Source: an uncultured Gammaproteobacteria bacterium (GTDB lineage Bacteria; Patescibacteriota; Patescibacteriia; UBA1558; GWA2-36-10). From it: DNA of 51,705 bases. The notes below the pieces were generated by a model. It did not search any database and was not told where the DNA came from. It worked only from the letters and a program-made list of their open reading frames with translations. The translations under genes and the position numbers were made by a program. Location of the stretch: contig CAZWYP010000001.1 of the NCBI GenBank assembly GCA_964638415.1, positions 1-51,705 on the forward strand, given 5' to 3'. Within the stretch, counting starts at the first letter, position 1. The number at the start of each line of letters is the position of its first letter. Below are positions 1-22,304 of the stretch, one piece after another.

Positions 1-2096
<2,096 letters not shown>

Positions 2097-19000: not shown

Positions 19001-19029
19001 TTGCCAAACCCAGTTTTTTCTGGTATTAT
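19001..19029 (+). promoter_or_regulatory. Promoter of the tRNA operon
   Basis: TTGCCA-17-TATTAT upstream of tRNA-Ile. Confidence 0.65.
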
Positions 19030-19052: not shown

Positions 19053-19129
19053 GGGCATATAGCTCAGTTGGTTAGAGCGCCACACTGATAATGTGGAGGT
19101 CGGAAGTTCAACTCTTCCTATGCCCACCA
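19053..19129 (+). tRNA. tRNA-Ile(GAT)
   Basis: Cloverleaf; anticodon arm CCACA-CTGATAA-TGTGG; encoded CCA. Confidence 0.95.
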
Positions 19130-19130
19130 T

Positions 19131-19205
19131 GCCGCGGTAGCTCAGTGGTAGAGCAGAGGCCTGAAGAGCCTTGTGTCGGTGGTTCGATCCCGCCCCGCGG
19201 CACCA
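19131..19205 (+). tRNA. tRNA-Phe(GAA)
   Basis: Cloverleaf; anticodon loop CTGAAGA; encoded CCA. Confidence 0.95.
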
Positions 19206-19217
19206 TTTTTTTAAAAA

Positions 19218-19294
19218 CGGGGTGTGGCGCAGTTGGCTAGCGCGCGTGCTTTGGGAGCATGAGGTCGGAGGTTCAAGTCCTCTCACCCCGACCA
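19218..19294 (+). tRNA. tRNA-Pro(TGG)
   Basis: Cloverleaf; anticodon loop TTTGGGA; encoded CCA. Confidence 0.95.
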
Positions 19295-19305
19295 TTTAAA
19301 ATATT

Positions 19306-19334
19306 TTGAACCTTTATAATATATATGATATAAT
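19306..19334 (+). promoter_or_regulatory. Internal promoter for the HTH-LAGLIDADG-like ORF and tRNA-Gly(TCC)
   Basis: TTGAAC-17-TATAAT with an extended -10 TG. Confidence 0.6.
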
Positions 19335-19355: not shown

Positions 19356-20027
19356 ATGATAACTAAAAGTATAAAACAAAAAGCAATAGAATACAGAAAA
19401 CAGGGGTATTCGTATAATTTAATCTCTCAAAAGCTAGATATAGCTAAAAGCACTCTAAGCCATTGGTTAAGAGAAATTCCTTTTAATCCTAACCGAGAAG
19501 TGATAGAGCGAGTACGAGATGCTAGATTAAAATCAGCTAAATTTAAAAATGGACAGCGGTTAGATAATATAATCGCTATGAGGCTGGAAGCTATAAAAGA
19601 GCTGGGCAATATCACTAAAAGAGATCTATGGATGATGGGTATTGGACTATACTTAGGCGAAGGTTCTAAAGCATATGAATATATTAGAATCGCTAATTCT
19701 GATCCTCAGGTTATCAAAATATCTATGAAGTGGTTCAGAGAAATTTGCGGTTTAAAAAATAATAATTTCAGATTAAACCTTCATTTATATCCCGATTCTA
19801 ACATTAAAAAATCTATAAATTACTGGTCGCTCATAACAGGGCTTAGTAAAAATCAATTTGGTAAAATACAAATAGATCGAAGAATTAATAAATCAAAAAA
19901 TAAGAAAAAATTATTACCTAATGGAACGCTCCATATAATAGTAAAAAGTAATGGTAATAAAAAATTGGGGGTAAGCCTTCATAGAAAAATAATGGGCTGG
20001 ATAGAGGCCGTGGAGAATAAAATATAA
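19356..20027 (+). CDS. HTH plus LAGLIDADG-like (homing-endonuclease/WhiA-like) protein
   Basis: N-terminal HTH (GYSYNLISQKLDIAKSTLSHWL); LAGLIDADG-like helix MGIGLYLGEGSK followed by IANSDP; Lys/Ile-rich. Confidence 0.7.
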   Translation: MITKSIKQKAIEYRKQGYSYNLISQKLDIAKSTLSHWLREIPFNPNREVIERVRDARLKSAKFKNGQRLDNIIAMRLEAIKELGNITKRDLWMMGIGLYLGEGSKAYEYIRIANSDPQVIKISMKWFREICGLKNNNFRLNLHLYPDSNIKKSINYWSLITGLSKNQFGKIQIDRRINKSKNKKKLLPNGTLHIIVKSNGNKKLGVSLHRKIMGWIEAVENKI

Positions 20028-20031
20028 TCAA

Positions 20032-20106
20032 GCGGGTATGGTATAATGATTATTATGTCTGCCTTCCAAGCAGACGATACGGGTTTGATTCCCGTTACCC
20101 GCTCCA
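20032..20106 (+). tRNA. tRNA-Gly(TCC) with a non-canonical elbow
   Basis: Cloverleaf; anticodon loop CTTCCAA; D-loop AATGATTA; T-loop TTTGATT; encoded CCA. Confidence 0.9.
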
Positions 20107-20119
20107 GATCTATCAAAAG

Positions 20120-20144
20120 AACAACCCTAAAGGTTGTTTTTTTG
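20120..20144. repeat. 25-bp terminator hairpin, direct repeat copy 1
   Basis: AACAACCCTAAAGGTTGTTTTTTTG, identical to 22280-22304. Confidence 0.9.
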
Positions 20145-22279: not shown

Positions 22280-22304
22280 AACAACCCTAAAGGTTGTTTT
22301 TTTG
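22280..22304. repeat. 25-bp terminator hairpin, direct repeat copy 2
   Basis: Identical to 20120-20144. Its TTGTTT lies 17 nt before TATAAT (22317-22322), upstream of tRNA-Gly(CCC). Confidence 0.9.

Follow-up and report, generated by a model that had tools for sequence, protein, structure and literature searches.

An A19-U56 elbow pair in the sole tRNA-Gly(UCC) gene of a small CPR genome, probably a compensatory change in place

The tRNA-Gly(UCC) gene at positions 20032-20106 on the forward strand of the window, i.e. the whole stretch of 51,705 nucleotides that was analysed, is most probably a working elongator tRNA gene in its ancestral place, whose elbow pair G19-C56 became A19-U56 by compensatory, near-neutral evolution and not by the gain of a new function (probability of about 0.85, from sequence comparison). 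It would be the last gene of an Ile-Phe-Pro-Gly unit in a small Parcubacteria-like CPR genome. The swap itself is rare per genome and recurrent in nature, and the corresponding double mutant has already been tested at the bench.

Seven tRNA genes were detected in the window by ARAGORN, including this one, which encodes its CCA end and carries the anticodon UCC at 20065-20067 (+ strand). Its score on the Rfam tRNA model RF00005 is 63.9 bits (gathering score 29, full model 1-71), inside the range of 56-77 bits obtained for the neighbouring tRNAs of the window. The cloverleaf is regular, with stems of 7, 4, 5 and 5 bp, a 7-nt anticodon loop and a 7-nt T-loop (ARAGORN, manual parsing). Read from its 5' end, the sequence comprises the acceptor stem GCGGGUA/UACCCGC, U8 and G9, the D-stem GUAU/UUAU with the D-loop AAUGAUUA, the anticodon arm UCUGC-CUUCCAA-GCAGA, a 4-nt variable loop CGAU, the T-arm ACGGG-UUUGAUU-CCCGU, U73 and CCA. 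The folding energy of the strand is far under that of its shuffles (z = -3.15). Its structure of lowest energy retains the acceptor, anticodon and T arms and pairs 8-12 with 20-24 instead of forming the D-stem read by homology. Bacterial elongator tRNA-Gly is identified by U73, G1-C72, C2-G71, G3-C70, C35 and C36, and the gene carries this whole set. In the T-arm, GUUUGAUUC matches the substrate consensus 53-GUUYRANYC-61 of the psi55 synthase TruB quoted by Roovers et al. (PMC7912444), where the elbow stack C61/A58/G18/R57/19-56 is also described.

The D-loop was numbered by homology to 28 Gly(UCC) genes of the same family and order, whose D-loops read AAUGGYU(U)A or AGUGGYU(U)A and whose T-loops all read UUCGAUU. 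On this alignment, G18 and A19 of the window gene lie at 20048-20049, where the relatives have G19. The T-loop UUUGAUU (20084-20090) supplies U54, U55 (20085), U56 (20086, C in the relatives), G57, A58, U59 and U60. The loops of the orthologues thereby fix G18, A19, U55 and U56, so that both changes are real and fall exactly on the 19-56 tertiary pair. The canonical G19-C56 is replaced by A19-U56, in which Watson-Crick pairing is preserved and base identity is altered. This replacement had been reported in a preliminary description of the window, which was correct in every detail on this point. The remaining canonical features of the elbow are all present, i.e. G18 facing U55, the reverse Hoogsteen pair U54-A58, the closing pair G53-C61 and a purine at 57.

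The variant gene is the only one of its kind in the genome. The assembly is of metagenome type and amounts to 1.07 Mb in 30 contigs, with an estimated completeness of 99.6% for a CPR genome. ARAGORN identified 47 tRNAs in it, 46 of which combine a GG D-loop with a UUC T-loop; only tRNA-Gly(UCC) combines GA with UUU. The other glycine tRNAs have the anticodons GCC and CCC. A second, canonical Gly(UCC) gene was what the preliminary description had named as evidence against its own reading, and none was found by ARAGORN over all 30 contigs or by blastn-short. The codon GGA occurs 3467 times in 495 long ORFs, where it makes up 23% of the glycine codons. Being the sole reader of a common codon, this tRNA must serve translation, unless another copy hides in unassembled sequence. 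A type-A RNase P RNA of the standard kind (219 bits, G000:C3:19518-19883) and TruB are likewise encoded in the genome. tRNA-Gly(UCC) is a real gene that almost certainly functions in translation.

The surroundings of the gene are partly ancestral and partly specific to the lineage. The genes of tRNA-Ile(GAU), tRNA-Phe(GAA) and tRNA-Pro(UGG) lie upstream at 19053-19294 on the same strand, in the order found in most relatives. In these, Ile(GAU), Phe(GAA), Pro(UGG) and Gly(UCC) form a contiguous array, and the Pro-Gly spacer is typically 0-100 nt long. A consensus scan proposed a promoter 5' of the array (TTGCCA-17-TATTAT with TG, 19001-19029, + strand), which is only a candidate since such sites are no more numerous than expected from shuffled sequence. 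Downstream of tRNA-Gly(UCC), the terminator hairpin AACAACCCTAAAGGTTGTT followed by a T-run (20120-20144, + strand; repeat family D3, terminator scan) ends the tRNA transcription unit. A terminator hairpin also follows the array in the relatives, two of which (L011 and L015) have hairpins resembling that of the window, T-run included. The order of the array and the downstream hairpin together make the gene the positional orthologue of the Gly(UCC) genes of its relatives.

Two insertions are lineage-specific at this locus. The first is a gene for a 223-residue HTH protein between tRNA-Pro and tRNA-Gly (19356-20027, + strand), for which the consensus scan proposed a separate candidate promoter (19306-19334). 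Only 4 nt separate its stop codon from the tRNA, and cleavage by RNase P at the 5' end of the tRNA would consequently set the 3' end of the mRNA. The second is a 2.16-kb graspetide cassette that follows the hairpin and separates tRNA-Gly(UCC) from tRNA-Gly(CCC). The cassette is bracketed by the hairpin at 20120-20144 and an exact second copy of it at 22280-22304 (25 nt, AACAACCCTAAAGGTTGTTTTTTTG), a duplication that looks like an insertion at the terminator or a recombination through it. A 59-nt match of repeat family D2 corresponds to the paralogous tRNA-Gly(CCC), with 71% identity. In one relative (L012), the two Gly tRNAs are found about 520 nt apart.

Within its own order, the variant stands alone. 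All 28 same-order positional orthologues are G19-C56 and none has U56. A search with a Gly(UCC) U56 pattern, requiring the acceptor ends GCGGG...CCCGCU that are present in all recovered relatives, matched the genome of the window and no other, whether in the 86 genomes searched in the order or in the 401 of the class. By these searches, the swap is specific to this lineage within its order. The canonical Gly(UCC) genes of the CPR relatives (L002-L030) otherwise share with the window gene the acceptor stem, the D-stem GUAU/UUAU with its U13-U22 mismatch, the short D-loop, the 4-nt variable loop, the T-loop backbone, the CCA, the location behind Ile-Phe-Pro and the hairpin terminator. They differ from it by G19 and C56 in all 28 cases, against A19 and U56, and by the 223-aa ORF that separates tRNA-Pro from tRNA-Gly in the window.

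Outside this order, the same swap was encountered many times. The U56 pattern was run over one genome per GTDB species and returned at least 120 loci, and all 126 genes in them have GA and not GG in the D-loop. Most of these loci belong to Bacteroidales (Prolixibacteraceae, Marinilabiliaceae, Marinifilaceae and scattered others), and six Saccharibacteria records are among the matches listed. Altogether, at least about 140 U56 Gly(UCC) genes were recovered as loci, with 57 distinct sequences, all of them A19 and none G19. Two clade samples gave 62 and 50 further U56 matches, some possibly from the same species, all with GA. A G19-U56 wobble intermediate was found neither among the approximately 140 genes from loci nor among these 112 matches. 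The variant is present in 35 of the 41 genomes of the family of Draconibacterium orientale (Prolixibacteraceae-type), in up to five copies and including cultured isolates, and in 49/60 genomes of the Saccharimonadia order that contains record L041. Eight carrier genomes were searched with a pattern accepting either state, and every Gly(UCC) copy in them is A19-U56. Three are of cultured bacteria, D. orientale DSM 25947 (1/1), Marinifilum flexuosum DSM 21950 (3/3) and Marinilabiliaceae JC017 (4/4); the other five are four MAGs of Saccharibacteria and one assembly of Alistipes putredinis (1/1 each). A trait common to all Bacteroidia was considered and rejected, an even sample of the class giving 0/100; the variant is concentrated in particular families. 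The JGI metagenomes yielded 13 contigs with A19-U56, including long phage-like tRNA arrays from the rumen. No sequence identical to the window tRNA was found in them (best match 70/75), and no matching tRNA was found in IMG/VR, in searches that may not show records of the window's own genome.

The Prolixibacteraceae-type and Saccharimonadia genes resemble that of the window in combining a GA D-loop with a UUU(G/A)A T-loop and in being the sole type of Gly(UCC) gene in their genomes. In those lineages, however, the whole clade has fixed the trait, often in several copies per genome, whereas here it was seen in one species only. The Bacteroidales version is moreover carried by a different tRNA body, with a GCUC D-stem and a 5-nt variable loop. 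The other carriers lie in unrelated genomic contexts. The tRNAs neighbouring Gly(UCC) in carrier loci retain UUC, except for two Bacteroidales tRNA-Arg(ACG) genes and some tRNAs of the phage arrays (U19 with A56). The two tRNA-Arg(ACG) genes (L039:962-1036 and L137:2875-2949) adjoin an A19-U56 Gly(UCC) gene and have the D-loop AAUUGAAUA and the T-loop UUUGAAU, i.e. A19-U56 as well. Four rumen contigs (L155, L161, L162 and L163) are dense phage-like arrays of 10-17 tRNAs with an A19-U56 Gly(UCC). Several of their other tRNAs (Cys, His, Ala) combine a UUAGAGU T-loop with a GU D-loop, read as U19-A56; odd T-loops (UGC, UCC, AGC) and one tRNA with an unassigned anticodon also occur in them.

The recurrence of the same swap in many bacteria makes it a rare ordinary variant and not something new. 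Calling G19-C56 near-universal, as was done initially, remains fair wording, but the variant is far less exceptional than this implied. The survey of Gly(UCC) genes that had been proposed confines the swap to one species in the scan of its order and class and reveals it again in Saccharimonadia and Bacteroidales. It had also been argued that a double change preserving the pairing marks a functional, selected variant, as opposed to decay or error. That the gene is functional, and neither decayed nor an error, is supported by the single Gly(UCC) gene, the frequency of GGA and the perfect covariation of A19 with U56 elsewhere. As for selection, the change is read here as probably near-neutral.

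The literature yielded no natural bacterial A19-U56 tRNA, only engineered mutants. [quoted passage not shown] In human mitochondrial tRNA-Ser(UGA), charging of a G19 mutant by mSerRS was restored by A19:U56 or by C19:G56, from which the authors concluded that the structure of the elbow is recognized and not its sequence (2023, PMC10412605). Both engineered constructs are comparable to the window gene in carrying an isosteric replacement at the elbow and behave close to wild type. The enzymes assayed were the protein-only RNase P of a plant and a mitochondrial SerRS; bacterial RNase P RNA, the L1 stalk, the ribosome and fitness lie outside the scope of these results.

A plausible course for the change is as follows. 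Two transitions, both GC-to-AT, would have converted G19-C56 into the isosteric A19-U56. The C56-to-U change probably came first and produced a G-U wobble, which the change of G19 to A then resolved; the absence of G19-U56 from every U56 gene examined suggests that the wobble state is short-lived. Such a swap would leave intact the L-shape, the contact of G18 with U55, the pair U54-A58 and the flat surface of purine and pyrimidine, to which the L1 stalk and RNase P RNA bind by stacking. An A-U pair has one hydrogen bond fewer than G-C and the elbow is perhaps slightly weaker. The retained geometry would nevertheless allow normal processing, charging by GlyRS and use by the ribosome in this organism. 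GC-to-AT mutation pressure together with drift would be the driver of a presumably near-neutral change. If the canonical G and C are restored at 19 and 56, the window gene is 5 edits from its nearest relative. By a rough estimate, the chance that two of about seven changes would hit 19 and 56 as a Watson-Crick pair is about 1 in 1000.

Among the alternatives, an unlikely one is that the swap is adaptive. A softer or chemically different elbow surface would then alter the reading of the tRNA by a specific partner. What speaks for it is that the swap has repeatedly arisen and been fixed in unrelated clades, i.e. Parcubacteria-like bacteria, Saccharimonadia, Bacteroidales and phage-like arrays. 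Such a partner could be a toxin or phage factor that binds the elbow, the L1 stalk as the tRNA leaves the E site, or RNase P, through the processing order of polycistronic transcripts; the unusual mRNA-tRNA junction 4 nt past the stop codon of the upstream ORF could be involved here.

It is also improbable that the resident gene was replaced by an A19-U56 allele acquired from a carrier lineage or a phage tRNA array, through horizontal transfer or gene conversion. The nearest A19-U56 sequences come from Saccharibacteria-type Gly-Arg-His clusters (L156 at 5 edits, L102 at 6) and have G9 or the whole D-arm in common with the window gene. Lineage-specific insertions flank tRNA-Gly(UCC) on both sides, and rumen metagenomes do hold phage-like tRNA arrays with an A19-U56 Gly(UCC). 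However, when positions 19 and 56 are masked, a canonical relative of the same order (L002) is just as close as the nearest carrier (L156), both at 5 edits, a comparison that rests on 72 bases and ends in a tie. The position after Ile-Phe-Pro and the type of terminator hairpin are moreover those of the relatives, and IMG/VR provided no matching tRNA. The homology of the flanks at this locus favours a change in place over a transfer.

A third proposal came from the preliminary description, which placed the tRNA directly behind a LAGLIDADG-like ORF and speculated that the swap was an escape variant. On that view, a homing endonuclease, an integrase or a nuclease directed against tRNAs would no longer act on the gene or on its transcript. 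The position of tRNA-Gly(UCC) between two lineage-specific insertions agrees with this idea, and a stretch in the consensus of the ORF family (GIGLYLGEGSK) loosely recalls the LAGLIDADG helix. The properties of the 223-aa ORF are nonetheless those of a conserved protein. In Pfam, only weak HTH families were matched at E <= 0.01, and neither Pfam nor PHROG gave any support for LAGLIDADG. The AlphaFold model (pLDDT 78) matches folds with an N-terminal recombinase/transposase-like HTH and a weak alpha/beta part; for the C-terminal alpha/beta domain (residues ~88-222), the best fold matches are weak, with Z of 5-7 (top 6.8). No LAGLIDADG enzyme was among the best Foldseek and VIA-align matches of the model. 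The family counts 703 homologues with up to 71% identity, the 120 listed having 53-71%, and is found in Parcubacteria, under names such as Staskawiczbacteria, Nealsonbacteria and Parcubacteria group. The gene is single-copy in the genome, and its family adjoins rny and clpP, and not tRNAs, in the two other genomes examined. A family so widely conserved and placed next to rny and clpP is unlikely to be a selfish gene. The LAGLIDADG label is not supported, and the ORF is better described as a conserved single-copy Parcubacteria HTH protein.

The escape idea fares no better at the tRNA itself. A distance of 37 bp separates the two substituted bases, whose common property is pairing in the RNA. 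A tRNA-borne att site was not found, the only exact repeat being the 25-nt hairpin that flanks the island, which starts 13 nt past the tRNA and contains no T-arm. A correlation between A19-U56 and the upstream ORF had been suggested as a check. No homologue of the ORF was found adjoining the Gly(UCC) genes of the relatives, and hundreds of genomes have the same swap next to unrelated neighbours. Escape from a nuclease or an integrase is thus very improbable.

An error of sequencing or assembly, or a decaying pseudogene, is hardly credible either. The assembly is indeed of metagenome type and in 30 contigs, and the JGI metagenomes contain no identical sequence. An artefact would, however, need two independent errors, one on each partner of a single tertiary pair, that restore pairing. 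The stems and identity elements are all intact, the gene lies on a 228-kb contig, and the same double change is present in hundreds of independent assemblies, isolate genomes included.

FemAB-family enzymes are aminoacyl-tRNA-dependent enzymes of peptidoglycan bridge formation. In staphylococci, tRNA-Gly(UCC) species with altered elbows are used for the pentaglycine bridges and coexist, as non-proteinogenic tRNAs, with a canonical elongator. The window gene resembles them by its non-canonical elbow nucleotides and by a host with a FemAB-family protein, encoded at G000:C1:60299-61249, about 9 kb past the window. It is nevertheless the least probable of all explanations that this tRNA works outside the ribosome and specifically supplies glycine to the FemAB-type cell-wall transferase or to the adjoining ATP-grasp peptide cluster: no canonical elongator with the same anticodon exists beside it to read GGA among the 47 tRNAs, FemAB is present in all of the ~40-41 relatives searched and therefore does not correlate with the swap, 27 of these having yielded canonical Gly(UCC) genes, and ATP-grasp RiPP enzymes are not known to use aminoacyl-tRNA.

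Read as a compensatory change in place, the gene would be a clean natural case of a 19-56 pair that is constrained by its geometry and not by base identity. It would also indicate that a minimal CPR genome, with one copy per tRNA, can still undergo such a change. The finding matters little to biology at large. For annotators, GA with UUU in a tRNA may be treated as a recurrent benign variant, and A19-U56 in Gly(UCC) is a possible cheap taxonomic marker for two groups, the Prolixibacteraceae-type family of G578 and the Saccharimonadia order of G474.

Two further observations concern other RNA genes of the same genome. Outside the window, ARAGORN identified a tRNA-Ile with the anticodon UAU (G000:C4:38077-38152); for the reading of AUA, a UAU tRNA is less common than the usual lysidine-modified CAU tRNA. 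At the start of the window (1-2096), the 5' part of the 23S rRNA has several insertions relative to the bacterial model, e.g. blocks of 59 nt and about 60 nt near model positions 228 and 283, and rRNA insertions of this kind are common in CPR.
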